DNA of 64,000 nucleotides from Sumerlaeia bacterium (GCA_040219255.1 JAVJSW010000060.1:6249-70248), one strand, 5' to 3'; shown: positions 17,445 through 48,425, counted from the first letter of the stretch. Notes: a model not told the origin generated them from the sequence alone. Made by a program: numbers and translations.

Positions 17445-17590
17445 GCAGATGGTTGAGTGTGGCTTTTTGGTCACAAAATCTAGCGATTTTTGGCGTCATA
17501 ATGCGTTGTTTTCCATTGTCTCGCAAATCGATGTTAAATTTACTCCGTCCAGCGTTTTCAATGCCCTAACCTTTTCACCCGGAGTTCATC

Positions 17591-18079
17591 ATGAAGTTCC
17601 AGAACATTCTCTTGGCCATGGGTTTCCTGGCAGCTACTTCCATCCCTAATATGACCACCGCTGAGTGCGATACCTGCGGCGGCAAGTGCGAAAAGTCTGT
17701 GTCGGCCAGAGATTACAAGGCTTGCACCAATTGGCTGGGAGGTGGTGGTCAGGTCTACATGACCCGTCACGCGAGCTATCGGTGCGACCGAAACAAGCAG
17801 ATTGAGGGCGGATGCAGCGGCACCACCCCAAGTGGTCCAGCCTATACGATTTTTGGCTACGCCCACAATATCAACGAAAACGAATGCGTCGTGCGCTTCG
17901 AACTGAACGGCACGGTCTCGACGATCATTTCCGATTCAGCCTCGCCCTCATTGCCCGAAGGTTCCGTGGTTCTTTCGGTGACCTGCTATGACCGTGATCA
18001 ATGCATCGTGATCAGTTATGAAGAGCCAACTGAAAGCGGCACTGCGAACGAATGCGCCTACCCGTCCTGCAGCGCCTAG
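17591..18079 (+). CDS. Small secreted cysteine-rich protein (12 Cys), unknown function; low-GC gene
   Basis: Signal peptide 'MKFQNILLAMGFLAATS'; GGAG RBS at 17581; about 54% GC versus about 66% in flanking DNA. Confidence 0.55.
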   Translation: MKFQNILLAMGFLAATSIPNMTTAECDTCGGKCEKSVSARDYKACTNWLGGGGQVYMTRHASYRCDRNKQIEGGCSGTTPSGPAYTIFGYAHNINENECVVRFELNGTVSTIISDSASPSLPEGSVVLSVTCYDRDQCIVISYEEPTESGTANECAYPSCSA

Positions 18080-18174
18080 CCGCCTGCAAGCTTCGGCAAA
18101 TAAACAATGCTTCCATCTCAAACCCCTTGGCTCTCCTATGCCAAGGGGATCTTATCATCTTTAAGGACCGCTTC

Positions 18175-19533
18175 ATGTCATTCAGATACTGGGTCGTCTT
18201 ATTCATCTTTTTATGTCCCCTGATCGCATTTTGTCAAGAGCCTGACATTCGTGATTTTCCCCCTTTGGAAGCCGCAATCGCATGGCCAATCATCGAGCAG
18301 GGGACGTTCGAAGGCGTCGTGGAATCTTCCGGACCTCCTCCGATGACGTCACGCGAGGTGGAAGCAAGTCTAATGGATGTCGAAACCGACTTTCTTGCGA
18401 CTTTAGCGGAGAGTGGTGAGGAGCTGTCGGCGGATTACCGGGAGATACTGGACGAATTCCTTGAGGAGCAAAGAGGTATATTGGAAAAGCTGCTTCTGCC
18501 TACGAATTCAAAAAAGAATTTTACGGTGTCGCTTTCCGGTCACCAGATGCGGCTTGAGTCGAGGATTTACGAGGATGATAGTTCCGTTTCCGAAGAGACG
18601 ATGACGGTGATTGGTCCAGAGGGGAAAAAGATCCTCACATCGAATATCCGATATTCCCGCCCAAGTGCCTACATATTTTTGGACGATGCCAAGAACGCTC
18701 CGGAAGACGCTATTTACGGCAACATCCTGGGTACGATCGGGACGGAGTTAGCCAAGGCGTCCACCCTGAATTTGTCGAGCAAGGATCTGGAAGGCGACAA
18801 GGTCTATTGGTTCGAGGCCACGGACATCAAGACAGACTTTTTCGACATTTACAGGGATGGCGCGGTTTCCTTCACGCGTATTGGCGTACGCTCTCAACAC
18901 GGCAACCGCCTCTCCGTCTATTTCAGCCAAGTTGGCGAAACCTTTCGACTCATCAATCGATATGACGACTTCCGAGAGGTTCCTGGATGGGGGTGGTATC
19001 CGCATGAAATCACGCTCATAACTCAGAATGGCGTCTTTGACAAGGAGGTTCTCCAGCGTATCCGCTCCGGGGCTCTGGCCCCCAACACCGACGAAGCGAT
19101 CGCCGCCTTCGCCCCTCAAGTAGAGAATGTGAAGACGATTACTTTGAGCAAAGTGGACATCGAAACACCGGTGGAAAAAGACGTTTTCGATTTCGAAATT
19201 CCAGTCGGCACCGTAGTCAAAGTCTACACCGGAGATGAGTCCAGCACCTACGTTCAGGGGGACTTTTCCGCGAGAGATGTTGTTACCGGCAGAAAGGTTG
19301 ACATGGCGGCGGGTCTGGAATTGGCCGAGGGAACTTCCCAGACTAAGGAGGAGATTGCCGAAACGCCTACACGTGAAATTGTTTCCGATACGCCCGCCAA
19401 GGTGGAACAGAAGGTAGAACCGCATGTCGTCGAACCAGCGAAGTCCAAGCGAAATGGAATGATCTTCGGCCTTCTTGCCGTTTCCTTCGTTATTGGCTTG
19501 GGACTTGTATTCAAGGTCTTTCGTAAGAAGTAA
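18175..19533 (+). CDS. Secreted protein with a C-terminal TM anchor, unknown function (possible LolA/RseB-like fold); low-GC gene
   Basis: ATG at 18175 with N-terminal signal peptide 'MSFRYWVVLFIFLCPLIAFC'; C-terminal 'GMIFGLLAVSFVIGLGLVFKVFRKK'; about 48% GC. Confidence 0.55.
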   Translation: MSFRYWVVLFIFLCPLIAFCQEPDIRDFPPLEAAIAWPIIEQGTFEGVVESSGPPPMTSREVEASLMDVETDFLATLAESGEELSADYREILDEFLEEQRGILEKLLLPTNSKKNFTVSLSGHQMRLESRIYEDDSSVSEETMTVIGPEGKKILTSNIRYSRPSAYIFLDDAKNAPEDAIYGNILGTIGTELAKASTLNLSSKDLEGDKVYWFEATDIKTDFFDIYRDGAVSFTRIGVRSQHGNRLSVYFSQVGETFRLINRYDDFREVPGWGWYPHEITLITQNGVFDKEVLQRIRSGALAPNTDEAIAAFAPQVENVKTITLSKVDIETPVEKDVFDFEIPVGTVVKVYTGDESSTYVQGDFSARDVVTGRKVDMAAGLELAEGTSQTKEEIAETPTREIVSDTPAKVEQKVEPHVVEPAKSKRNGMIFGLLAVSFVIGLGLVFKVFRKK

Positions 19534-19679
19534 TTTCCCTATCTCCACAGCGAATCTCAGTCTCCACAACGATCCAAATCTGCGCGGCCTTTCCCACGGC
19601 CCCCACCTCCCACTGCCTTTTGCAACGCATCGAAAACGTTGACACCGAAATGTGGTGCAATTAGGAATGCGTTTGGATT

Positions 19680-19985
19680 TTGCGGGCGTACAAAGGAGAA
19701 GTGGAAGGCTATTCCGATCAGCGAATCCTCGCCGACTGCGATCATTTCGGTTTCGAACTCGCCTCGCCTCCGACCCCTTGGCTGCGGGCGATGGCCTCGC
19801 GAACCGTCCGCGAATGCCAAGATGCTCTCCGCGTGGAAGCCACCGCCCAAGGCTGCTCTCCCGAAGTCGTTGAGGAGGAGATCGGCTGGGAAGTGCTCGC
19901 CCAGAAGAACCCGAATCGCTCCGTCCTTACCCAGCCTCCCGATTGGGTTGAGAATGTTTGCGGGCGGTACTTCGGGTCCCGCTGA
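19680..19985 (+). CDS. Possible small protein (101 aa), TTG start; hypothetical
   Basis: GC3-rich codon pattern consistent with host coding; aaaggag motif overlapping the start; no recognisable domain. Confidence 0.3.
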   Translation: MRAYKGEVEGYSDQRILADCDHFGFELASPPTPWLRAMASRTVRECQDALRVEATAQGCSPEVVEEEIGWEVLAQKNPNRSVLTQPPDWVENVCGRYFGSR

Positions 19986-22298: not shown

Positions 22299-22340
22299 GC
22301 CCCCGGCCCGCCCCAGCGCAGGCCGGGGGCGGATTGCTTA
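22299..22340 (+). terminator. Putative terminator hairpin after the S51 gene
   Basis: gcccccggcccg...cgggccgggggc hairpin; weak U-tract. Confidence 0.35.
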
Positions 22341-22696
22341 AAGGTAGCACGGGCGTCCCGCCCGTGACCCGCCAGCCGCCTGCCACGCCCTATTCTGTTA
22401 TCGCAAACGCACTGTTCGCAGAGGAAGCCGAGAGTCGGCTCTCGGAGAAAAAGCGCTGCTGGGCACGGGCGGGACGCGCCGTGCTACACAGAAATATTAA
22501 ACCATGGTATTACCGAGATAAGAAACACATCCTCCACCACATGGTTGCAACCACCCTCATCCGCGCCATCCGCGCGATCCGCGCGATCCGCAGCAAAAAA
22601 TCCCCCTCCCTCTTGCCAAGCCCCCGCCCCCTGTGCCAGCGTCCCCCGCTCGGCGCGCTTGCGCTTTACACCACAGGACTTACGCCACCGATCCTC

Positions 22697-24319
22697 ATGA
22701 CCACCCTCCAAGAAGAAATCGCCCGCCGGCGCACCTTTGCCATTATCAGCCACCCGGACGCGGGCAAGACGACCTTGACGGAAAAGTTCCTGCTCTATGG
22801 CGGGGCGATTCACCTGGCCGGTGAAGTCCGCGCCCGCCGCACGCGCCGCCACGCCACCAGCGATTGGATGAGCGTGGAAAAGGAACGCGGCATTTCCGTG
22901 ACGACGTCCGTGATGCAGTTTCCCTATGGCGGCCGGCTGTACAATCTGCTGGATACGCCGGGGCACCAGGACTTCAGCGAGGACACCTATCGCACCCTGG
23001 CCGCCGCCGACTGCGCGATCATGTTGATCGACGCGGCCAAAGGCGTCGAGGCCCAGACGCGCAAGCTCTTCGAGGTCTGCCGCCTGCGGGCGATGCCGAT
23101 TTTCACGTTCGTCAACAAGATGGACCGCGAAGGCCGCGAGCCTCTCGATCTGATGGACGAGGTCGAGAAGCTCCTGGGCATTCATTGCGTGGCACGCAAC
23201 TGGCCCATCGGCCAGGGCCCGACCTTCAAAGGCGTTTACGACCGCGACAAAGACATCGTCCACCGCTTTGAACGCGGCACCGACCACGGCTCCACCAAGG
23301 TGATGACCAACGTGACCGGCGGTGCGAAAGACAAGCTGGCGGAGCTGATCGGCGTGGACGGCTCGGCGCGGTTCCGCGACGAACTGGAATTGCTCGACAT
23401 GGCGGGCGAGCCCTTTACGCGCGAGGAATTCCTGACGGGCGAAGTGACGCCGGTGTTCTTTGGCAGCGCCCTGACCAACTTCGGCGTCGAGCCCTTCCTG
23501 GAAGCCTTTGGCGAGTTGGCCCCCACGCCCCGCAGCCGCACCACCAGCGAGGGCGAGGACCGCGAGCCGGAGAACGAAAAGTTCAGCGGCTTTATCTTCA
23601 AAATCCAAGCCAACATGGACAAAAACCACCGCGACCGCATGGCGTTCCTGCGCGTGGTCAGCGGCCATTTCGAACGCGGCATGAACGCCAAAATCGCCCG
23701 CAACGGCGATACCGTGCGGCTCAATAACGCCACGACGTTCTTCGCCCAGGAACGCACAGTGGTGGAAGAAGGCTATCCCGGCGACATCATCGGCCTCTAT
23801 GATCCGGGGATTTACGCCATCGCGGACACCCTGACGGAACCCGCCGAGCAGTTCGAGTTCGAGGGCATTCCGCGCTTCTGCCCGGAACTCTTCAGCCGCG
23901 TCCTCGCGCCGAACCCGATGAAGCGCAAGCGGCTCGACAAAGGCCTGCAGCAGCTCAGCGACGAAGGCACGATCCAGGTTTTCTACCCGGCCGACAACAT
24001 GACGTCGCCCGAGCCCGTGTTGGCGGCCGTCGGCAAACTGCAACTCGAAGTGGTTCAGCAGCGCATGCTGGAAGAATACGACGTCGAGATCAAGCTGGAG
24101 CCGCTGCCCTACACGGCGGCGCGGTGGCTCGACGCGGACCGCGACGAAGTGAACTGGCAGCAGTTCCGCCGCTCCGGCATCAGCGACGTCATCGCCGATC
24201 CGCGCGGGCGGTTGCTCGTCGTCTTCCGCGACGAGTGGACCCTGCAATACGCCATCCGCAACGCCACGGAAAACATCGTCTTCCGCACCACCGCGCCCGA
24301 GCCGAAGGCCATAAAGTAA
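22697..24319 (+). CDS. prfC: Peptide chain release factor 3 (RF3 GTPase)
   Basis: 'RRTFAIISHPDAGKTTLTEKFLL', 'DTPGHQDF', 'NKMDREG'; ATG at 22697; the upstream in-frame extension from 22334 is rejected. Confidence 0.85.
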   Translation: MTTLQEEIARRRTFAIISHPDAGKTTLTEKFLLYGGAIHLAGEVRARRTRRHATSDWMSVEKERGISVTTSVMQFPYGGRLYNLLDTPGHQDFSEDTYRTLAAADCAIMLIDAAKGVEAQTRKLFEVCRLRAMPIFTFVNKMDREGREPLDLMDEVEKLLGIHCVARNWPIGQGPTFKGVYDRDKDIVHRFERGTDHGSTKVMTNVTGGAKDKLAELIGVDGSARFRDELELLDMAGEPFTREEFLTGEVTPVFFGSALTNFGVEPFLEAFGELAPTPRSRTTSEGEDREPENEKFSGFIFKIQANMDKNHRDRMAFLRVVSGHFERGMNAKIARNGDTVRLNNATTFFAQERTVVEEGYPGDIIGLYDPGIYAIADTLTEPAEQFEFEGIPRFCPELFSRVLAPNPMKRKRLDKGLQQLSDEGTIQVFYPADNMTSPEPVLAAVGKLQLEVVQQRMLEEYDVEIKLEPLPYTAARWLDADRDEVNWQQFRRSGISDVIADPRGRLLVVFRDEWTLQYAIRNATENIVFRTTAPEPKAIK

Positions 24320-31079: not shown

Positions 31080-31164
31080 GCGAGCGTGGCGGAATTGGCA
31101 GACGCACCAGGTTTGCGTCCTGGCGGGGAAACCCGTGGGAGTTCGAGTCTCCCCGCTCGCACCA
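31080..31164 (+). tRNA. Class II tRNA (Leu-type body, 13-nt variable arm, A73, encoded CCA) whose anticodon loop reads UUUGCGU, giving anticodon UGC (Ala) as read
   Basis: Manual fold: acceptor GCGAGCG/CGCTCGC; D-arm GGCGGAATTGGCAGACGC (near-identical to bacterial tRNA-Leu); anticodon stem CCAGG/CCTGG; T-arm GGGAG-TTCGAGT-CTCCC. Confidence 0.7.
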
Positions 31165-33127: not shown

Positions 33128-35080
33128 TTACCCGTTCGACAAAGCGGCGATGCCTTGTCGTTTGTAGCGGCAGAGAGCCTGCACGAGAGAGGCGCTTGTG
33201 GGCTGAGAAGCCACCACCTGCGCTTCCACGCCGAGCGTTCCCAATGCCTGGGCGACACCGTCGCTGATCGCGGCCAGCACGACGCCCGATAGCAAGTCAC
33301 GTGCGTCTTCTTCCTCTAAGACACGGGCGAAGGCGTCGACGGCGGAGATGGAGAAGAAGGTGACGGCGTCGACCTCCTCGTCGCGCAGGGCGTGGGCGAG
33401 GCGCAGGGCCTGGGAAGCGTCGGGAACGCTCTCGTAGAGGGGAAGAATGAGGACGCTGGCGCCACGGTTTTCGAGTTCCTCGGCGAGGTCGCCGTGCTCG
33501 CCGACACTTTCCACGATGGTGACGCGGGAGACGGACAGATCGGGGCCGAAGATGTCGCGCATGGCTTTGGGGGTGAAGGGCGGGTGGATCGCATGGGCCA
33601 CCACGTTGCGTTCGCGCAACGCGTCGAGGGTCGCTCCACCGGCGGCGAGGATGCGGGCGCGGGAGGAAAGAACGCGCAGGTCGAGGCCGACGCTCCAGAG
33701 GGCGTCGAAGAAACTCTGTACCCCACGGGGACTGTTGAAGACCAAGTGTGTCGATTGGGCCAGGTCGTCCTGGAGGGCTTCGAGTTCGGAGGAGAGGCCC
33801 GCCACGGGGCTGTGGGTGGTCAGGGGGAAGGCGCGGGCTTCAGCGCCGCCTTCGCGCAATTGGAGCAGGGTTTCCTCGGCTCGGTGGCGCGAACGGGTCA
33901 CGGCCACGCGCCATCCGAAGAGGGGTTGGCGCTCGAAAAAGTTGAGTTCTTCGCGCAGGTTGACGACTTCGCCGACGACGAGGAGGGCGGGGGCTTCGAC
34001 GCCTTCGCCGCGGATGCGTTCGGGAAAGTCGGCGACGGTGGCGACACAGACGCGCTGGCGGCTGGTGGTGCCCCATTGGATGCAGGCGACGGGCTGGCCC
34101 TGGGGCCGGCCGCCGGAGAGCAGGCCATCGCGGATGTCGTCGAGAGTCGCCATGGGCATGAGAATGACGAGTGTATCGGCGGCGGCGCAGACCGCTTCCC
34201 AGTCGACCTCCGAGGTGAAAAGGGCGCCTTGGGGGGCGTCGACGCGGGCGGCGCCGAAGGGGGCGCTGGTGCCGGTGTCTTCGTTGGTGGTTAGAATGGG
34301 GGTGGGGGGTCGCTCGGTGGCTTCCTCCACTTCCACGTTTTCGTTGGAGAGAAGGCGCATGATGGCGCTTTCGCCCGATTCGTGGTCACGGGCGTGGCGG
34401 CGGCGGATTTTGATACCGGGTTTGCGGCGCTTCATCATCTCGGCGGTCCGGGCGCCCGACGCCATGGCCTCCATGATGGCGGCGTGGGAGATCTTGGAGG
34501 TCGCCCGCGAGCCGTCTTCCTCGTGCATGCGGGGCGAGGAATCGGGCGCGCCCGGGCGTTGCGGCGTCAAAGCGCCGGAGGGGGGGAAGTCTTCGCCGTG
34601 TGGCGCCTGCTGGTGGCGAGGCAATTTGTGAACGGGTTCGACGCGGCCGTGGAGGACGAGGACGCTGCCGGCGAGGCCCCGCTGAAGGACGGGGATTCCG
34701 GCGTAGGCGGGGACGGCGAGGACGCTGCTGATTCCTGGGACGACCTCGACGGGGATGCCGGCTTCGCGGCAGGCGAGGGCTTCTTCGCCGCCCCGGCCGT
34801 AGAGGTAAGGATCGCCGCCTTTGAGGCGGACGGTGCGTTTGCCGCCGCGGGCGTGCTGGATCAGAGCCTCGTTGATTTCCGTCTGGCTCATGGAGGGTTT
34901 TCCGCCGCGCTTGCCAACGTAGATGCGCTCCGCGTCAGGGGGCGCGAGATCGAGCAAGTCCTGGCCGATCAAGGCGTCGTAGAGAACGACGTCGGCACCG
35001 ACGAGGATGTCGCAGGCTCGGCGTGTGAGAAGACCCGGATCGCCGGGACCTCCTCCCACAAGAAAGACTTTTCCCGCCAT
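33128..35080 (-). CDS. cobA: Uroporphyrinogen-III C-methyltransferase / uroporphyrinogen-III synthase fusion (CobA-HemD) with an unusual low-complexity insertion of about 140 aa in the methyltransferase domain
   Basis: 'VFLVGGGPGDPGLLT' and 'GGDPYLYGRGGEE' match CobA; 'QWGTTSRQRV' also matches; C-terminal HemD-like; insertion maps to about 34211-34645; ATG at 35080. Confidence 0.8.
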   Translation of the reverse strand: MAGKVFLVGGGPGDPGLLTRRACDILVGADVVLYDALIGQDLLDLAPPDAERIYVGKRGGKPSMSQTEINEALIQHARGGKRTVRLKGGDPYLYGRGGEEALACREAGIPVEVVPGISSVLAVPAYAGIPVLQRGLAGSVLVLHGRVEPVHKLPRHQQAPHGEDFPPSGALTPQRPGAPDSSPRMHEEDGSRATSKISHAAIMEAMASGARTAEMMKRRKPGIKIRRRHARDHESGESAIMRLLSNENVEVEEATERPPTPILTTNEDTGTSAPFGAARVDAPQGALFTSEVDWEAVCAAADTLVILMPMATLDDIRDGLLSGGRPQGQPVACIQWGTTSRQRVCVATVADFPERIRGEGVEAPALLVVGEVVNLREELNFFERQPLFGWRVAVTRSRHRAEETLLQLREGGAEARAFPLTTHSPVAGLSSELEALQDDLAQSTHLVFNSPRGVQSFFDALWSVGLDLRVLSSRARILAAGGATLDALRERNVVAHAIHPPFTPKAMRDIFGPDLSVSRVTIVESVGEHGDLAEELENRGASVLILPLYESVPDASQALRLAHALRDEEVDAVTFFSISAVDAFARVLEEEDARDLLSGVVLAAISDGVAQALGTLGVEAQVVASQPTSASLVQALCRYKRQGIAALSNG

Positions 35081-35302
35081 GCTCCACAAACCTCGGCGTA
35101 GGGATCTCGCTCGTCCCGATGGATGACGAGGTTTGACATAGAAGAAGACGCGCATGTGCGCAAGAGGCATCCCGGGGCTTTGCGAGCCTTTCGGAAGCGG
35201 TGCGGCGCGCGCGGCGCATGGACCGCCGAAAAAGCTCGCGCGGGTCTGGCCTTTGCTGTAGGAAGACAGGCAGATGATTCTTCGAAAAGGACCCGACCCA
35301 AC

Positions 35303-35545
35303 ATGACCAGTGAGACCCCGCCCCAAGGCTATACCCTGATCCATGTGGCCGAGATGCCGGAGATGGCCCACCTGTTCCGCGATGTTCTGTCGTCCCAGGG
35401 CTTCGACGTGTACGAGACGGACAATGACAGCAACGGACTCTTCCGGACGGAATGGGGATCGCGGATTTACGTGCGCGACGCCCAGGCCACCAAAGCCACC
35501 GCGGCTCTGGACGAGTACCGTAACGAGAATCAGCCGAGCGCCTGA
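35303..35545 (+). CDS. Small DUF2007-like protein (80 aa), hypothetical
   Basis: ATG at 35303; about 80 aa, in the size range of DUF2007 proteins. Confidence 0.4.
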   Translation: MTSETPPQGYTLIHVAEMPEMAHLFRDVLSSQGFDVYETDNDSNGLFRTEWGSRIYVRDAQATKATAALDEYRNENQPSA

Positions 35546-40383: not shown

Positions 40384-41139
40384 CTAGTTGTAAATAAACA
40401 GTCCTGCTTGACATCTCGGATTTTGTGGGAAATCCTTCAGCCATGCTCCCCTTGCGGTAGAACCGCAGGGCTGACGTCCGCCTCTTCGGAGGCGGCGTCT
40501 TTTTTTTAGCGCCACTTTGCCGGCTTTGAAATCGAGACACCAGGAACCAGGAGCGACCTGGATAATATCGGGCATCTGCGACGCCTTCAGTGTGGATTTC
40601 CAGATATCTCTCTTAGAGTCAGCAACCTGCTCGAGGTCGAAAGATTTCCTCTTCGGTGGAAAAGCGACTCGAATCTCTTGTTCGATTTTTCGGCGCTTGA
40701 TGAAACGAATTGGAGGAACCAAATCGCTATCGGCGGAGATCAAGAGTGTCACATCGCACTCTTCGTCGTATGCATCGGTCAGCATTTGCACTGCGATGTT
40801 AACATCCGTCATTTTCTCTTCCGCCCGAACAAAGGGGTAAGAACAGCGAAAGCACTTGCTCTTCTTGTGAAGAAAGTTGCCGTAAACCACAGTACAATCC
40901 CGCAAGGTCTCCACAGCCTCCAAGTAGGCGTTTTGCCTTCGCTCCTTTTGCGGATCAGCGGCAGAGGCGGAAACTCGCGATGTAAAATAATATGTGTGTG
41001 ACAGAGCTTCGTCGGATTTGACGAAGGCGGACGCCAACTTCACAAAATCCAACCAATAATACCTGCGAAATGAAGCACTCTTCATTCCGTAGTACAGGTT
41101 GAATCCATCGATGTATGCAATAACCCTTTTCTGTTCCAT
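40384..41139 (-). CDS. NYN-domain (LabA/DUF88-like) predicted ribonuclease; low-GC gene overlapping the nrdJ stop (TGATG)
   Basis: 'VIAYIDGFNLYY' NYN N-terminus and 'LISADSDL' acidic motif; about 50% GC; ATG at 41137-41139 shares its A with the nrdJ TGA. Confidence 0.6.
   Translation of the reverse strand: MEQKRVIAYIDGFNLYYGMKSASFRRYYWLDFVKLASAFVKSDEALSHTYYFTSRVSASAADPQKERRQNAYLEAVETLRDCTVVYGNFLHKKSKCFRCSYPFVRAEEKMTDVNIAVQMLTDAYDEECDVTLLISADSDLVPPIRFIKRRKIEQEIRVAFPPKRKSFDLEQVADSKRDIWKSTLKASQMPDIIQVAPGSWCLDFKAGKVALKKRRRLRRGGRQPCGSTARGAWLKDFPQNPRCQAGLFIYN
40473..40508 (+). terminator. Orphan plus-strand intrinsic terminator, antisense to the 3' part of the NYN ORF
   Basis: Hairpin gacgtccgcctcttcggaggcggcgtc followed by T9; a TTGACA hexamer lies at 40408-40413. 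Confidence 0.55.
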
Positions 41140-44100
41140 CAACTACACCCCGTCGTCCCCCCGCACGTTTCGCATTTCAGGCAGGTGCCGTTGCGCACGA
41201 GGGTGAAGCTGAAGCAGGACGGGCAGGGGTCGCCTTCGTAGCCTTTCAGGCGGGCGATGCGGATTTGTTCGTCGCGGGTCATGGAGGGCTCCTGGGTGGC
41301 GGCCGTCGAGGCGGACGGCGCGGCGGCGGCCTTGGGGCCTTGGGGCTGGCGGGCGGAGTCGCCGTGGTTCACGGAGGCAGGACTCGGCGAGCCGGGGCGG
41401 AAGTGCTCGCTGACTGGCGGGCGGGCTTCCGAAGGCCGCGGCGTGTCGATGGAGACGACCCGTTCGCTGACGAATTCTTCGCCGTCGAAGTCCGGCGCGG
41501 CCTGGGCCGCCGAGCCCATGGCGTCGTGGCGCAGGTCCTCGGGGCTGACGTGGGCCAGATCGTAGCGGCCCAGGTAGCTGATCGCCAGCTCGCGGAAAAT
41601 GTAGTCGATGATCGACGTCGAGCGTTTGATGTGCGGGTTGCCGCGGACGACGCCGCTGGGCTCGAAGCGCGTGAAGACGAAGCTCTCGACAAACTTCTCC
41701 AGCGGCACGCCGTGCTGCAAACCCATGCTGACGGAAATGGCGAAGCAGTTCATCAGGCTGCGGAAGGCGGCGCCTTCTTTGTGCATATCCACGAAGATTT
41801 CGCCCAGGCTGCCGTCCTCGTATTCGCCGGTGCGCAGGAAGACCTTGTGGCTGCCGATGACGGCGCGCTGGGTATAGCCGCTGCGGCGTTCGGGCAGCCG
41901 GCGCCGGCGGCTGATGTAGCGGTAAATCAGGCGCTCGGCGATCTGCTGGGGCGAGGCGTCGGCGGTGATGGGCGCGAGCGATTCCTCGGCCACTTCCTCC
42001 GCCTCTTCCTCGTCGAGGAAGGCGAGGTCGCTGGCGGAAATGTTGAGCGGCTGGCTGAGCTTCGAGCCGTCGCGATAGAGCGCGACGGCTTTGGTCATCA
42101 GCTTCCACGCCGACATGTAGGCGTTCTTGATGTCGTCCACGCCGACTTCGTTGGGCATGTTGATGGTCTTGCTGATGGCGCCGCTGATAAAGGGCTGGGC
42201 CGCGGCCATCATCTTGATATGGCTGGGATAGGACAGGAAGCGCTTGCCGTACTTGCCGCATTTGTTCGCGCAATCGAACACCGGCAGGTGCTCGTCGCGC
42301 AGCTCGGGTGAGCCTTCGACGGTCATGCGGCCGCAGATGTGATCGTTGGCGGCGGCGATTTCTTCCTTCGTAAAGCCAATGCCCTCAAGGACGCTGAAGC
42401 TCCAGTCGTTGAGCTGCTCGTCGCTCAGGTGCAGGTACTTGCGGCAGTTCTCCTCGCCCAGCGTCCACTTGTTGAACACGAAGGCGATGTCGAACGCCCC
42501 GTGCAATTGGGCCTCGACGGCGTCGAGCATGGCGGGCGTGAAGCCTTTTTCCTCCAGCGTGGCGCGATTGACGAAGGGCGCGCCCTCCAGCGTCAGCGAC
42601 CCCCGCGCGAAAGCGATGATGCGGTCGATCTGGCGGTCGGTATAACCCAGGTGGCGCAGCGCCGCGGGCACGCTCTGGTTGATGATTTTGAAGTACCCGC
42701 CACCGGCCAGCTTCTTGAACTTCACCAGGGCGAAGTCGGGTTCGATGCCGGTGGTGTCGCAATCCATGACGAGGCCGATGGTGTTGTGAGAAATGAACCC
42801 GTTGGCGATGTAGGTGACGTTCTCCGGCACGGAAATGTCGTAGGTCAGTTGCTCGCCGCCGTCTTCGTTTGTGGCGACGGCGTCGTAGAAGAATTGCAGC
42901 GCATGGCCGAGGCGCGGGTCGCCGCTCTCGCGGTAGAGGGTTTCCGCCGCGCGGCGCGTGATGGCGCCGCCGTGGCGCTTGCGCGCGAGGGCGATGGCGT
43001 TCTTCAGCCCGGCGCCGGCGGCCACCGGCGCCAGCTCTTCCAGGACCTCGGGGGCGACGAAAACGTAGTCTTTGCGCGCGGCTTGTTCGTTGTCGGCGGA
43101 GCGCACGGCGGCGGACTTGCGTTGGCCCATGAATCCGATCCAGCGCTGGAACGCCGCGTTGTAGGACAGGTTGCGCAGGCGGCTGACGAACAGATCGCTC
43201 TGGCCCCAGCCGCTCGTGTCCACCTTGGTGGTCGTCGGCAGGCCGAGCGTCAGCAACAGCGTCTTCACCTCTTCGCAGAACTCGCGGTGCGACGTGCTCC
43301 AGCACGGAACGTCCTGGGTCACGGTGCCATCGGCCTCATAGAGCCCGCGCAGGAACGCGCCGTAAACCAACGGATCGTTCGCGCCCAGCACGGCATCGGG
43401 GATGCGGGGCAGGTAGCCTTTGCCGGAATGGCCGGCGCTGGGGGCGGCCTTGGTGAACCCGCAGGCTTCCCACCAGAGCGTCAGCGGCACGCTGTGCAGC
43501 GAAACGCCGGTGTAGCCCTTTTCCTGGGTCACGATGGCGTCCAGGTTGAAGAGGCTCTTGGCGAGGGCGCAGAGGCGCTCGGCGACGTCCCTGTCCCCGG
43601 GCGCGACGCACAGGCGCAGGCCCTTGGCGTGGAGCGACCCATCGCCCATGAAGTACCCGACGAATTCCGCCAGATCGGCCGACATGTGGCGCGGCACGCG
43701 CGTCGTGTAATCGCCGGTCCAGTATTCCTCGCCCAGCGGCGGCAGGTTCACCGCCACCGGATCGCCCGCCAGCGCCCCCATCATCAGAGGCACCACATCG
43801 CCCGGCTGCACGTCGGCGAACCGGCGCCAGACGTGCTCGCCGGTGGCGGCGTCCACGACTTTGATGCGGTGCTTCAGGGTGCCCTGAATCGCGTAACCGG
43901 CGTCGGTGCGCAGGCGCCGCGTGTCCTCGACGCCGTTGACGAAGAACTTCGTGGCGTCGCGCTCGCCTTCGTCGGTCATGACGCTGAAGTCCGCGTCCTG
44001 CCAGCGGTCGCCGTTCACATCGCCGAGACGATTCAGCCGCATCAGGCCGCGATTGGTCGAAACCATCGATCCCGCCACCAGGCATCCTGTCGGCGCGATC

Positions 44101-47100
44101 ACCGTGGTCTGCGCGTTCCGGTATCCGTGCCGCTCGCCCATGTCCAGGGCCTGGTCCCAGGCTTCGCGGGCGGCTTCCAGGAGGGGGGCGGGGCAGTGCT
44201 CCGCCGCGATGCCCATGGGCGTCACGGTCAGGTCCTCGTAATCCGAGGTGTGGGCGTCGTAGGCGGCGCGGCGGTGGTTGCGCATGACGCGAAGCATGGG
44301 CTCGCGGTTGGGGGCGAAGCTGGGGAAGGGGCCCTTCTCGGCGGCGATTTCGGCGCTCGTGGCGTAGGACGTGCCGGTCATCAGCGACGTGATCGCGCCG
44401 CAGACGGCGAGGCCCTGGGGGCTGTCGTAGGGAATGCCGCTGACCATCAGCAGCGTCCCCAGATTCGCGTAGCCCAGGCCCAGCGTGCGGAACTCATAGG
44501 ACAGGCGGGCGATGTGCTCGCTCGGGAATTGGGCCATCATCACGCTGATTTCCAGCGTCAACGTCCACAGCCGGCAGCCGTGGCGGAAGTCCTCGATGGC
44601 GAAGGCGCCGGTTTCCGGATCGCGGAATTTCATCAGGTTGAGCGACGCGAGGTTGCAGGCGGTGTCGTCGAGGAACATGTACTCCGAGCAATTGTGAACC
44701 ACGATGCCGTTGGCGACGAAGTGGCTGGAGACGGGCTCGGTGAGGTCGAAAACGTCCTCGGTGCCGCAGGGGGTGAGGGAGGCGACGCGGTCGTAAGGCT
44801 TGTCTTCGTAGGCTCTCACGGTGGCATTCAGCTCTTTCAGGCGCGCGTTCTTTTCACTGCCTTCCAGGAAGCCGATTTGCTCCTGGAAAACGACACGCGA
44901 GGACCGCGAAATCCGCATCGAATGCATTTGCGCGACCGCGTATTCCTTCAGCCCGCCCTTACCATCGGGCAGAAGTGCGGTCTCCTGACCGAGGGCGCGG
45001 CGGTTCTCGTAGATCTTGGCCTTGATGCCAAAACCGAGCAGAATCATTTGGACTTGGCGCAGCAACTCCAGGCTCGTGCTGTCGAGCGCCACGTACTGGC
45101 TTTTGTCGCCATAATTCGCGACAGTGCCATCGGCCGTGAAGAGGCCCCGCAGAATGGCGGCCTGGCTGATGCTGTCGAGGGCGTAAACCTGATCGGTGAA
45201 AGCCTTGGCGGCGGAGCCTTGATCGAGGTGGGCGTACTTGCGCAATTCCTTCAGCACCGCGCTCACCGACGTTCCGACGCGCAGGCCAGTCTCCGTCTTG
45301 GTGATGAGGGCCTGTCGCACTCCGCGCTGATCGCCGGTGCTCAAGGTTTCCTTTGCCTCGCTCAGCGCGGCGTTCAGGTGGGCCGCGACCCGCTCTTCCG
45401 CCTCGCCGACGGTCAGGAACAGGAACTCCTGGCCTTTCGCGCCGGTGGTGATGCAGCCATCGCCGACCGCGGCACCGAGCACCTCGCCTAGGCAAACCGG
45501 CAGCGCCTCCCTTCCAAACCCGCTCCCCTCCAGAATCACCCGGTCATCCGCCGTCAGCTCGCACGCCGGCACATCGCCGCGGTTCGCTGTCAGGACCTTG
45601 TGGTCGGCGGTCAGGCGGAGGCGATAGCCGCTCGCCGTCTTCAATTCGTAGATCGGCTTGTGGCCCGTGGGGAAAATCTTGTCCACCCAGACCGCGTCGC
45701 CGTTGCCGTTGATGATTTCCGCGCGCTCGCCCACCATGTCGGCGATGCGGCGCAGACCGCTCGTGGTGGCGACGAGGGTGTCGCCGGTGACGCACGGGTT
45801 ACTCGCATTGATCCGCCCGCTCGCCGGGCAGGTGTGCCATTCGTTGATGGTGGTGTCGTACTGCACGCCGGGATCGGCGCAGGACCACGCGGCGTAGGCG
45901 ACTTTGTCCCACAGCTCCCCAGCCGGGACGGTGCGCGCCGTTTTGCCGTTCGTGCGGTTGATCAGCGCCCAGTCCGTCTCCGCTTCCACCGCTTCCAGGA
46001 AGGCGTTCGAGAGGCGGACGCTGTTGTTGCTGTTCTGGCCCGACACCGTGAAGTACGCTTCCGAGTCCCACCCCGTGTCGTACTCCTGGAATTCGAGCTT
46101 GGTGTAGCCCTCGCGGGCCAATTGGATGACGCGCTGGATGTAATTGTCCGGCACTCCAGCGTCGCGGGCGTCGCGCACGGCGCGGCGCAGAACCTTGTTC
46201 TCGCGGGGGTTGTAATTGTCGCCGAAGAGATCCGCGTCGGCGTCGTTGCACGCCGTCATGACGGCGTTCAGGTGGCGGTTGCACAGGCGCGAGCCGCTGA
46301 CCAGGGCGGCGACCTTTTGCTCCTCGCGGACCTTCCAGTCGATGAAGGCTTCGACATCCGGATGGTCGATATCCAGGACCACCATCTTGGCGGCGCGGCG
46401 GGTCGTGCCGCCACTCTTGATGGCCCCGGCGGCGCGGTCGCCGATTTTCAGGAAACTCATCAGCCCACTGGACTTGCCGCCGCCCGAGAGCGGTTCGCCC
46501 TCGCCGCGGATGCGCGAGAAATTCGACCCCGTGCCCGACCCGTACTTGAACACCCGCGCCTCACGCGTCCACAGGTCCATGATGCCGCCGTCGTTGACGA
46601 GGTCGTCATCCACCGATTGGATGAAGCAGTTGTGGACGAGGATGCCGTTGGCAAGGAAATAGTGGTCAGCCGTGGTCAGATCATAGACCTCGTGCTCACC
46701 ATCCAACTCCAATATACCTCTAACCTGTCGAACAGTGAAGTCTTCAGAAATGTCCTCATAGCCGGAGATTTCTTGACCAAAGTATAGATTTCTGGTATTT
46801 CGCAAATACTTTGCAGCGCACAAATAGTGGCCCACTTGCAGCGACTTTGCTTGGCAATCGTGGCGTACGTTATTTTCATAGGTCTGAACCACGTGGTCGT
46901 GAGTGACTCTTACCTTGCCAAAGTTTTCTGTTGCTATAACTTCATGAGAAAATGTTATTTCAACAAGCCGCTTCTTTGTAGGTTGCTTGACTACGTATCT
47001 AATATCTTGGAGCACCCGCTGATCACGAGAAGCTATTTTGTATTTGCCAATTGGCAGTTTGATGCCTCCTTTTTCATCTACATGAGTTGAATGCTCTTGA

Positions 47101-47807
47101 ACGCAATAAGCATAAAACTGATCTATGCGAATTCCACTGTGCTCGGCGGTCGAATCATCTTCGGCTCTCAGTTGCTCCCAACGTGAAGAGTTAGTGGGCT
47201 GAACATATATCTGTACATACGTATCCCCCGCCACACACGCGTGCGGCTGCGGGTGCTCGTAGGCGTTCGCCGACTTCTCCAACTCGCCCGTGAAGGGATT
47301 GACGAAGCTGTGGCCTTGGGCCGGGCCGGTGATGCCGTAGGCCCAGTGGAGCCCCGTGTTGAACCATTGGGGCGAGTTCGGCGCCGCCTTCTGAGCCGCC
47401 AGCATGTGGCACATTTCGTCGTAGTAGGCGCGGGCGTCGGCTTCGGAGGCGAAGTAGCCGCCGCGCCAACCCCAATAGGTCCAGCAGCCCGCGAGGCGAT
47501 GGAAGACGGCGCGGGCGTCGCGCTCGCCGCCCATGGCGGTGCCGGGGGCGGGCACGCGGCGTTGCAGCCATTCGGGCACGCCGTCCTCGGCCACGGGCAC
47601 CGATTCGGCGGGGATGCCGGCTTTGCGGAAATACTTCTGGGCCAGGATGTCGACGGCGATCTGGCTCCAATGATCGGGCACGGCGATGTCCTTGGCCTCG
47701 AACACCACCGAGCCGTCGGGGTTCACGATGCGGCTGGTGCGGGTGGAGAAGGGAATGGCGGCGTAGGGGTCGTTACCGGCGTGGGTGAAGCGGCGGGTGA
47801 TGTTCAT
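41139..47807 (-). CDS. nrdJ: Adenosylcobalamin-dependent ribonucleoside-triphosphate/diphosphate reductase (class II, NrdJ) interrupted by three in-frame inteins; C-terminal Cys-rich tail
   Basis: Extein motifs '[10 protein letters not shown]', 'GGGKSSG', '[11 protein letters not shown]', '[22 protein letters not shown]' and 'CPSCF...CLKCETCGG'; ATG at 47807; 2222 aa, of which about 1217 aa is extein. Confidence 0.9.
42783..44084 (-). mobile_element. Intein 3 (434 aa) with LAGLIDADG homing-endonuclease domain, inserted at APTG|TIGL of NrdJ
   Basis: Starts 'CLVAGSMV', ends 'NGFISHN' followed by the +1 Thr; '[10 protein letters not shown]' and '[11 protein letters not shown]'. Confidence 0.8.
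44691..45794 (-). mobile_element. Intein 2 (368 aa) with LAGLIDADG homing-endonuclease domain, inserted at NPC|SEY of NrdJ
   Basis: Starts 'CVTGDTLVA', ends 'NGIVVHN' followed by the +1 Cys; LAGLIDADG-like '[10 protein letters not shown]' and '[11 protein letters not shown]'. Confidence 0.8.
46629..47237 (-). mobile_element. Intein 1 (203 aa mini-intein) inserted before the Cys of the ACFI motif of NrdJ; AT-rich
   Basis: Starts 'CVAGDTYV', ends 'GILVHN' followed by the +1 Cys; DNA is visibly AT-rich relative to its flanks. Confidence 0.8.
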
Positions 47808-48425
47808 GGTCGGGGTCCTTGCGGCGGAGTGGGAGTGGATCGGAGCGGCGTGCGGGGACGGCCATGCCTTCGCTTTTCGTTCGTCGAGGCCAATGGGCCT
47901 CCGGCGGCTGGTTTGGCGGCGGAAGTTCCCATTTGGTTTTTGGAAAAGAGGGGAGGGATACCCCGGACTTTTCCACAGCTTCCAGCAAAATCGGCACAAC
48001 GCGGGGATCAGACGCGTTCCCCTAGATGTTGTACCGTGGTTGTGTAGAAGCGCTAGATATGGCGACTGCTGCAAACAAAAAAACGCCTCGCCAGCAACCC
48101 GAGTGAACTCAGAGGGATGGCGTTTTTTCGGATTTCCGATAGAAATGGTGTGGAAAACTGGAAGCCTTGAAATCCTTCGCTTTGCCGCCCAAGCCAGCGG
48201 ACCGCCCGGCTTCTGTCAAGGAGCAATAAATTTCCGATTTTTGGAACGTGAGGGACCGCGACGGGGGGCCGGCCGCCGTGGCCACGACCGGCGGCGCCAT
48301 TTCTTCAAGAGCCAACCTTCCTCCCACGCCCCCGCAAGTCCGCTCAAACCGGAAACCCGGAGCCGCCGAACTCAACGGCCCCGGTCTTTCAAGAGACGCC
48401 GCGGGTCACGGGCGGGACGCCCGTG

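Follow-up and report, generated by a model that had tools for sequence, protein, structure and literature searches.

Three probable inteins in the class II ribonucleotide reductase gene of a Sumerlaeia bacterium, one of them compositionally foreign

The nrdJ gene of a Sumerlaeia bacterium (GCA_040219255.1) encodes a predicted class II ribonucleotide reductase (RNR) of 2222 amino acids (aa), in which an earlier reading of the sequence (the original prediction) recognised three inteins. The locus raises two questions: whether the inserts are excisable elements in a working enzyme, and whether all three have the same history. Here, we address both from a stretch of 64,000 nucleotides (nt) (JAVJSW010000060.1:6249-70248; hereafter the window, in which all positions are counted). 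Judged from the sequence, it is very probable that the three inserts are genuine inteins in a functional NrdJ.

Three inteins at catalytic positions

Excision of the three inserts leaves an extein of 1217 aa, which aligns over residues 1-917 to the vitamin B12-dependent RNR of PDB entries 7b9q and 7b9p (1314 bits). The alignment is gap-free at all three junctions, and the residues flanking them are identical between the extein and 7b9q. Since the spliced sequence matches a solved NrdJ without gaps at the junctions, we regard the inserts as excisable elements and not as lineage-specific loops of the enzyme. Even with the inteins still in place, the protein scores 1953 bits against NF005736, the equivalog model of the long B12-dependent RNR (cutoff 1737), and Pfam recovers Ribonuc_red_2_N, the RNR barrel in three pieces, Ribonuc_red_lgC and TSCPD; the class II N-terminal domain PF08471 is present with E = 1.6e-39. 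The model score and the 7b9q alignment bear out the predicted class II extein of 1217 aa with its hallmark motifs.

The active site was mapped by alignment to the NrdJ of Thermotoga maritima (1xje), in which ACF of the spliced extein matches C134, NPCSE matches N320-C322-E324 and TACN matches C333. C134 and C333 are taken to be the redox pair. With a slash marking each splice junction, intein 1 lies at PHA/CVAGD...LVHN/CFIQSV, where the +1 Cys is C134, and intein 2 at NP/CVTGD...VVHN/CSEYMFLDD, where the +1 Cys is the finger-loop Cys C322, the thiyl-radical site in all characterised RNRs (PMC9531940). Intein 3, at APTG/CLVAG...ISHN/TIGL, has a +1 Thr, and its site corresponds to G492/S493 of the APTGS loop. 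The claim that the insertions occupy conserved catalytic-site positions thus holds in the 1xje mapping (C134, C322 and G492/S493), and the junctions PHA/CFIQSV, NP/CSEYMFLDD and APTG/TIGL, as well as the intein lengths, are exactly as first described. The residue numbers originally given for the inteins (280-482, 761-1128 and 1331-1764) preserve these lengths but are shifted by +89 relative to the 2222-aa protein, because residues had been counted from a TTG at 48074.

Cys1 (block A), the block F Asp and the terminal His-Asn (blocks F/G) are found in all three inteins, in agreement with the predicted Cys starts, HN ends and +1 residues Cys, Cys and Thr. Scans with Pfam and NCBIfam detect three intein splicing domains and two LAGLIDADG_3 domains; together with blocks A, B, F and G, this matches the proposed set of one mini-intein and two LAGLIDADG inteins. 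For PF14890 (cutoff 35.8), intein 1 reaches 49.3 bits and intein 2 reaches 57.2 bits, while TIGR01443 is over its cutoff in all three inteins (26.5 bits against 15.6 for intein 1) and TIGR01445 gives 42.5 bits for intein 2. Inteins 2 and 3 also match the DnaB, GyrA and VMA intein chains by sequence.

The nrdJ product would need three autocatalytic protein-splicing reactions before it could work, each insert acting as a class 1 intein. Cys1 would carry out the N-S acyl shift, aided by the block B Thr and His, the +1 Cys, Cys or Thr would attack the thioester, and the terminal Asn would cyclise with help from the penultimate His, freeing the intein and leaving the exteins linked by a peptide bond. 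For inteins 1 and 2, the +1 nucleophile is also a catalytic residue of the enzyme (a Cys of the redox pair and the thiyl-radical finger-loop Cys, respectively), and intein 3 splits a conserved active-site loop. Given these positions, the unspliced protein should not be active, and selection on the enzyme would enforce precise splicing.

The mature enzyme has the features of a long, dimeric-type, ribonucleoside diphosphate (NDP)-reducing class II RNR with a C-terminal Cys-rich domain, which by family is expected to depend on adenosylcobalamin. The P-N-S-P apical phosphate loop, a mark of NDP reductases (PMC8365446), predicts NDP substrates, and the six-Cys tail has a spacing similar to that of the NrdJd Cys-rich domain (CRD, PMC5704485).

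Each of inteins 2 and 3 contains two LAGLIDADG motifs with the conserved Asp, as had been proposed, and matches PF14528 (cutoff 22.5) with 72.9 bits for intein 2 (intein residues 211-308) and 59.1 bits for intein 3 (241-317). Numbering insertion sites along the extein places inteins 1, 2 and 3 at sites 190, 468 and 670. The motifs are kept in at least 90% of the 74 large inteins at site 468 and 63 inteins at site 670 that we aligned. As conservation runs through the endonuclease domain, this suggests that both endonucleases are under selection, and the two inteins would be LAGLIDADG homing endonucleases with an intact catalytic Asp. Intein 2 is 64-73% identical to the site-468 inteins of its nearest relatives and intein 3 is 64-70% identical to site-670 inteins of relatives, near the extein identity of 62-72%. 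With this extein-like divergence and a host-like GC content at third codon positions (GC3; values below), we interpret both inteins as residents of long standing that have ameliorated.

Table 1 Features of the nrdJ gene in window coordinates.
Feature	Position	Strand	Description
nrdJ precursor gene	41139-47807	-	2222 codons plus stop, ATG at 47807
Extein segment 1	47238-47807	-	aa 1-190, ends ...HPQPHA; Ribonuc_red_2_N; GC3 0.905
P-N-S-P apical phosphate loop	47364-47384	-	in extein segment 1
Intein 1	46629-47237	-	aa 191-393, 203 aa, CVAGDTYV...ANGILVHN; Hint-only mini-intein
Intein 1 block B	46881-46913	-	THDH; T112/H115 invariant in alignment A1
Extein segment 2	45795-46628	-	aa 394-671, CFIQSV to ...INASNP
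Intein 2	44691-45794	-	aa 672-1039, 368 aa, CVTGDTLV...ANGIVVHN; LAGLIDADG intein
Intein 2 block B	45588-45614	-	LTADHKVLT (TADH)
Intein 2 LAGLIDADG motif 1	45453-45479	-	LGAAVGDGC; GDG from 111, predicted catalytic Asp at intein residue 112
Intein 2 LAGLIDADG motif 2	45126-45152	-	LRGLFTADG; ADG from 221, Asp at intein residue 222; within PF14528 match
Extein segment 3	44085-44690	-	aa 1040-1241, ends ...VIAPTG; holds second redox Cys (T. maritima C333)
Intein 3	42783-44084	-	aa 1242-1675, 434 aa, CLVAGSMV...ANGFISHN; LAGLIDADG intein
Intein 3 block B	43857-43883	-	GTLKHRIKV (TLKH)
Intein 3 LAGLIDADG motif 1	43638-43664	-	FVGYFMGDG; GDG from 147, Asp at intein residue 148
Intein 3 LAGLIDADG motif 2	43326-43352	-	LRGLYEADG; ADG from 251, Asp at intein residue 252; within PF14528 match
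Extein segment 4	41142-42782	-	aa 1676-2222
TSCPD domain	41583-41876	-	in extein segment 4
Six-Cys C-terminal domain	41142-41225	-	C-x2-C-x10-C-x2-C-x2-C-x5-C; in extein segment 4

Multi-intein NrdJ among relatives

The homologues surveyed were the 120 best matches to the intein-bearing precursor, a set biased toward intein carriers since the query itself contains inteins. Each of the 120 is a long NrdJ with at least one intein, and they come from metagenome-assembled genomes (MAGs) of Sumerlaeota, Chloroflexota, Planctomycetota and others. Inserts of at least 90 aa, mapped onto extein numbering, fall at nine sites (190, 222, 261, 265, 468, 469, 479, 670 and 875), with site 190 occupied 44 times, site 468 85 times and site 670 62 times. 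Of these proteins, 60 have a single intein, 36 have two and 18 have three, while four and five inteins occur in 3 proteins each; the longest protein has 3228 aa. The three sites of the Sumerlaeia gene are jointly occupied in 15 of the 120; the site-190 inteins of these 15 are unrelated to intein 1 and belong to a CLPYH/CQPW type. Among species representatives in GTDB, the best identity to the N-extein is 75%, across MAGs of Chloroflexi, Sumerlaeota and Planctomycetota.

Two groups in the survey extend the range of arrangements. Five inteins each are carried by P0009 (3228 aa), P0026 and P0057, at sites 190, 222 or 261, 468, 479 and 670. P0020, P0023 and P0034 have another intein of 447 aa at position 469, with HNH-type domains (PF13392 and PF07460), junctions NPC/C...FIHN/SEY and a +1 Ser. 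As this position is one residue downstream of 468, the radical-Cys codon is flanked by two distinct intein insertion points.

The closest known protein, MBX3730396.1 (P0001; NF005736/PRK07562), has 72% extein identity, the same domain order and allelic LAGLIDADG inteins at sites 468 and 670 that are 68-69% identical to those studied here; it differs in that site 190 is empty. A more distant likeness is to the class II RNR of Pyrococcus (NF006207/PRK08332), which also has LAGLIDADG inteins, the Pfu/Pab RIR1 inteins with PI-PfuI among them. Over positions 940-1241 of that profile, a part that includes inteins, intein 2 gives a match with E = 1e-28, but the Pyrococcus enzyme is an archaeal short NrdJ, and the whole Sumerlaeia protein reaches only 312 bits against the profile cutoff of 2400.

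With 211 inteins, RNR ranks second among bacterial proteins in intein content (PMC4760082), and the RNR of Trichodesmium erythraeum, by the account of it in a later paper, contains four (Liu, Yang & Meng 2003, J Biol Chem; cited in PMC2874743). The Trichodesmium protein is the published precedent for several inteins in one bacterial RNR polypeptide, and its four are exceeded by the five of P0009, P0026 and P0057. No introns are seen in the Sumerlaeia nrdJ. The original prediction had placed three inteins in one RNR gene at the high end, a view that does not survive the comparison: 24 of the 120 homologues have at least three, and the four-intein RNR dates from 2003. On the homologue counts, the 211 RNR inteins and this precedent, three inteins at these NrdJ positions are an ordinary arrangement for the enzyme family.

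Intein 1: fold, composition and origin

What goes beyond routine is intein 1 alone, an orphan in sequence and compositionally foreign. It contains no endonuclease family of Pfam or NCBIfam, and the linker from the post-B strand to block F is ~40 aa. An AlphaFold model (17-sequence alignment) shows a single Hint domain with a predicted local distance difference test score (pLDDT) of 78 and a predicted template-modelling score (pTM) of 0.77, and Foldseek matches it with probability 1.0 to solved mini-inteins and Hedgehog Hint domains. The lobe between blocks A and B is long (~95 aa, ~35-40 residues extra), with modelled helices at 18-26 and 38-49 at lower confidence. The model shares the Hint horseshoe with the mini-inteins Aes123 PolB1 (9hth), Pho CDC21-1 (6rpq), Mvu TFIIB (5o9i), Pho RadA (2lqm), the NrdJ-1 split intein fusion (8ubs) and Npu DnaB (4o1r) at target-normalised template-modelling (TM) scores of 0.6-0.8, although the sequence is only 14-20% identical to theirs.

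Sequence searches with intein 1 gave no match in the PDB and no homologue in a word-indexed search of 5.8 billion clusters with the intein alone. HMMER, run in full over 1.84 billion representatives, returned six weak matches, of which five amount only to another intein's C-terminal splicing block. The highest-scoring, P0121, is a repeat protein in which a weak 63-aa match recurs six times and inflates the score; it was rejected as spurious. Contig scans of GTDB, IMG/VR and JGI gave either nothing or just a 25-aa block G match, on a giant-virus contig. Intein 1 shares only the terminal blocks with other inteins.

The DNA of intein 1 has a GC content of 0.450 and a GC3 of 0.448, against GC3 values of 0.885-0.921 in the exteins, 0.826 in intein 2 and 0.892 in intein 3. 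It forms the lowest-GC 600-nt stretch of the window (0.453, compared with a mean of 0.637 and a standard deviation of 0.046), and its fraction of GARP amino acids is 0.19, compared with 0.29-0.37 in the rest of the protein. The 203 codons are free of stops, for which base composition gives P = 6e-6 and which only 1 in 20000 shuffles reproduced; the other five frames contain 3-16 stops.

Related ends do occur at the same site. In P0008, P0016 and P0025, site-190 inteins of 230-273 aa begin and end as in the Sumerlaeia gene (CV[AT]GD...GILVHN), and their terminal DNA is near-identical to it (GCC AAC GGC ATC CTC GTC CAC AAC/TGC TTC ATC CA). The interiors have a GC3 of 0.52-0.58, against 0.80-0.92 in the exteins, and are ~28% identical to each other, against 73-79% for the exteins. 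Two full-length LAGLIDADG inteins were also found at this site: one of 405 aa with AT-rich ends in a Chloroflexia MAG (L073, JBBRDO010000080.1), with a GC3 of 0.49 against 0.76-0.82 in the host gene, and one of 362 aa in a Chloroflexota MAG (L058, JAGWYZ010000031.1). They are related to each other, and both have terminal motifs in common with intein 1. The L073 intein indicates that AT-rich, endonuclease-bearing inteins do invade site 190. Among the GTDB species representatives, the site is empty in 63 loci and filled in 7, and in the remaining 10 no junction motif was found.

We lean toward reading intein 1 as a later, foreign arrival from a lower-GC source, because its composition is foreign and it has no relatives, whereas inteins 2 and 3 are host-like. 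One possible route is replacement of the interior of a previous site-190 intein; others may be recombination or a trans-acting endonuclease. Several observations weigh against a foreign arrival. As no donor or close relative was found, the transfer is read from composition only. Codon usage is host-like at both ends of intein 1, over ~6 codons at the start and ~12 at the finish (GC3 is 0.70 in the terminal 20 codons and 0.42 in the interior), and the flanking extein has no low-GC co-conversion tract; one-step homing from a low-GC donor predicts neither. Interior replacement by recombination within conserved intein ends, or a mosaic history, is a possible source of the host-like ends. Somewhat doubtful, and offered tentatively, is the idea that intein 1 represents an unsampled lineage of endonuclease-free mini-inteins that originate in a lower-GC pool and circulate between GC-rich nrdJ genes. 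Lacking a homing endonuclease of their own, they would enter either through recombination at the conserved ends of a resident site-190 intein, swapping the interior only, or through a free-standing, trans-acting endonuclease that cuts the empty site 190. If true, it would explain the AT-rich interiors, host-like termini and mutually unalignable interiors in four lineages (the Sumerlaeia gene, P0008, P0016 and P0025). We consider it unlikely that intein 1 is instead an old resident whose interior, once its homing endonuclease was lost, became AT-rich under relaxed constraint and AT-biased mutation. The same ends, near-identical terminal DNA and AT-enriched, fast-diverging interiors of the P0008, P0016 and P0025 inteins fit such a history, as does the higher GC3 of the conserved blocks of intein 1 (0.59, against 0.36 in the rest; Fisher p = 0.0015). 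However, an unconserved linker of the same gene (aa 2105-2175) is not AT-rich, with a GC3 of 0.873, and GC3 in the other two inteins is independent of conservation (conserved versus variable sites, 0.82 versus 0.87 in intein 2 and 0.91 versus 0.87 in intein 3), on which grounds relaxed constraint was rejected as the source of the low GC. Moreover, site 190 is empty in the nearest relatives, P0001, P0015, P0019 and P0021, and the AT-rich L073 intein fits an AT-rich mobile pool.

Two further readings concern the assembly of intein 1 and the splicing of all three inserts. That the AT-rich segment is an assembly chimera, with the nrdJ genes of two organisms joined at conserved intein ends, seems very improbable. 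The exact protein is absent from a 15-billion-protein collection, in which the best match is 70% identical, and the intein ends share up to 35 nt of identity with alleles of other organisms, which could seed a join in graph assembly. Yet both joins are in frame, the Hint fold is complete and confidently modelled, GC3 shifts gradually at the C-terminal end without a sharp breakpoint, the contrast of low-GC interior and high-GC host recurs in three independently assembled MAGs, and GC-rich flanks would be unexpected in a native low-GC host. We give still less credence to the inserts being lineage-specific NrdJ insertions or decayed, non-splicing remnants, which would make the gene a pseudogene or leave an enzyme with large permanent insertions. 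The missing sequence relatives and unusually long A-B lobe of intein 1 could be taken that way, and intein 3, scanned alone, scores 28.8 bits against PF14890 (E = 1e-6), under the 35.8 cutoff, which counts against three genuine inteins; it is still above the TIGR01443 cutoff (25.8 bits) and has every block. On the other side, Cys1, TxxH, the block F Asp, His-Asn and the +1 nucleophile are intact in all three inserts, excision is exact to the residue, and the 6.7-kb frame runs unbroken even through the 609 AT-rich nt. Because the insertion points fall within the finger-loop NPC motif and the redox Cys region, inserts that stayed in place would destroy the active site; dozens of homologues, moreover, bear allelic inteins at the same sites. 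In place of the NrdJ-specific insertions without Hint blocks that the original prediction had named as its counter-case, we find an extein that aligns gap-free to a solved NrdJ, and the blocks are present.

Gene boundaries, surroundings and implications

The predicted coordinates (41139-47807) and length (2222 aa) stand; the strand had not been given, and it is minus, as translation of the plus strand over the same interval shows no open reading frame (ORF). The stop codon occupies 41139-41141, and starting at the ATG at 47807 gives the 2222-aa product, while the longest possible ORF begins at the TTG at 48074 and would give 2311 aa. Met1 of the precursor (MNITRRFT) pairs with residue 1 of 7b9q (MKIERKFT), and because the alignment begins there, the ATG at 47807 is the likely start.

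An Rfam scan of the whole window found no cobalamin riboswitch upstream of nrdJ; the sole match at the gathering threshold is a tRNA at 31080-31161 (plus strand). Scans for promoter and terminator consensus sequences around nrdJ gave matches at chance level. About 215-250 nt upstream of the ATG, at 48022-48058 on the minus strand, there are two copies of C[CA]A[TC]ATCTAG, 31 nt apart (ccATATCTAGcg...caACATCTAGgg). The pattern ATCTAG-N(20-30)-ATCTAG occurs once in the window, where shuffles expect 0. By their spacing and AT-rich palindromic core, the two copies may be likened to tandem NrdR operator boxes.

Directly downstream, a 252-aa ORF with an NYN domain (PF01936, E = 2.5e-11; 40384-41142, minus strand) starts within the nrdJ stop codon. 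It is atypical too (GC 0.49, GC3 0.55) and forms a second low-GC island adjoining nrdJ; no link between it and the nrdJ inteins was found. A third low-GC island lies at 17451-19750, with a minimum GC of 0.49 per 600 nt and a GC3 of 0.60-0.66, and contains two plus-strand ORFs (17591-18079 and 18052-19533) without a Pfam match. A fused uroporphyrinogen-III methyltransferase/HemD ORF (TP_methylase plus HEM4; 33128-35371, minus strand), of the tetrapyrrole/corrin pathway, is ~6 kb from nrdJ. An insertion of ~80 aa suspected in the prfC ORF (22334-24319) was dismissed, as the ORF start is over-extended and the real protein begins near residue 123, with normal length.

For annotation, the description that fits is an intein-containing NrdJ from which three segments are excised to give a mature enzyme of 1217 aa; it should not be labelled a protein of 2222 or 2311 aa, nor a 'LAGLIDADG endonuclease'. 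The gene is a further example of inteins concentrating at the catalytic residues of RNR, where imprecise loss is lethal. Intein 1, a sequence-unique Cys1/Cys+1 mini-intein, could join the candidate splicing tools because it is compact, unlike others in sequence and confidently modelled as a Hint domain. Set beside its two ameliorated neighbours in the same gene, it may provide an internal clock for successive intein invasions.

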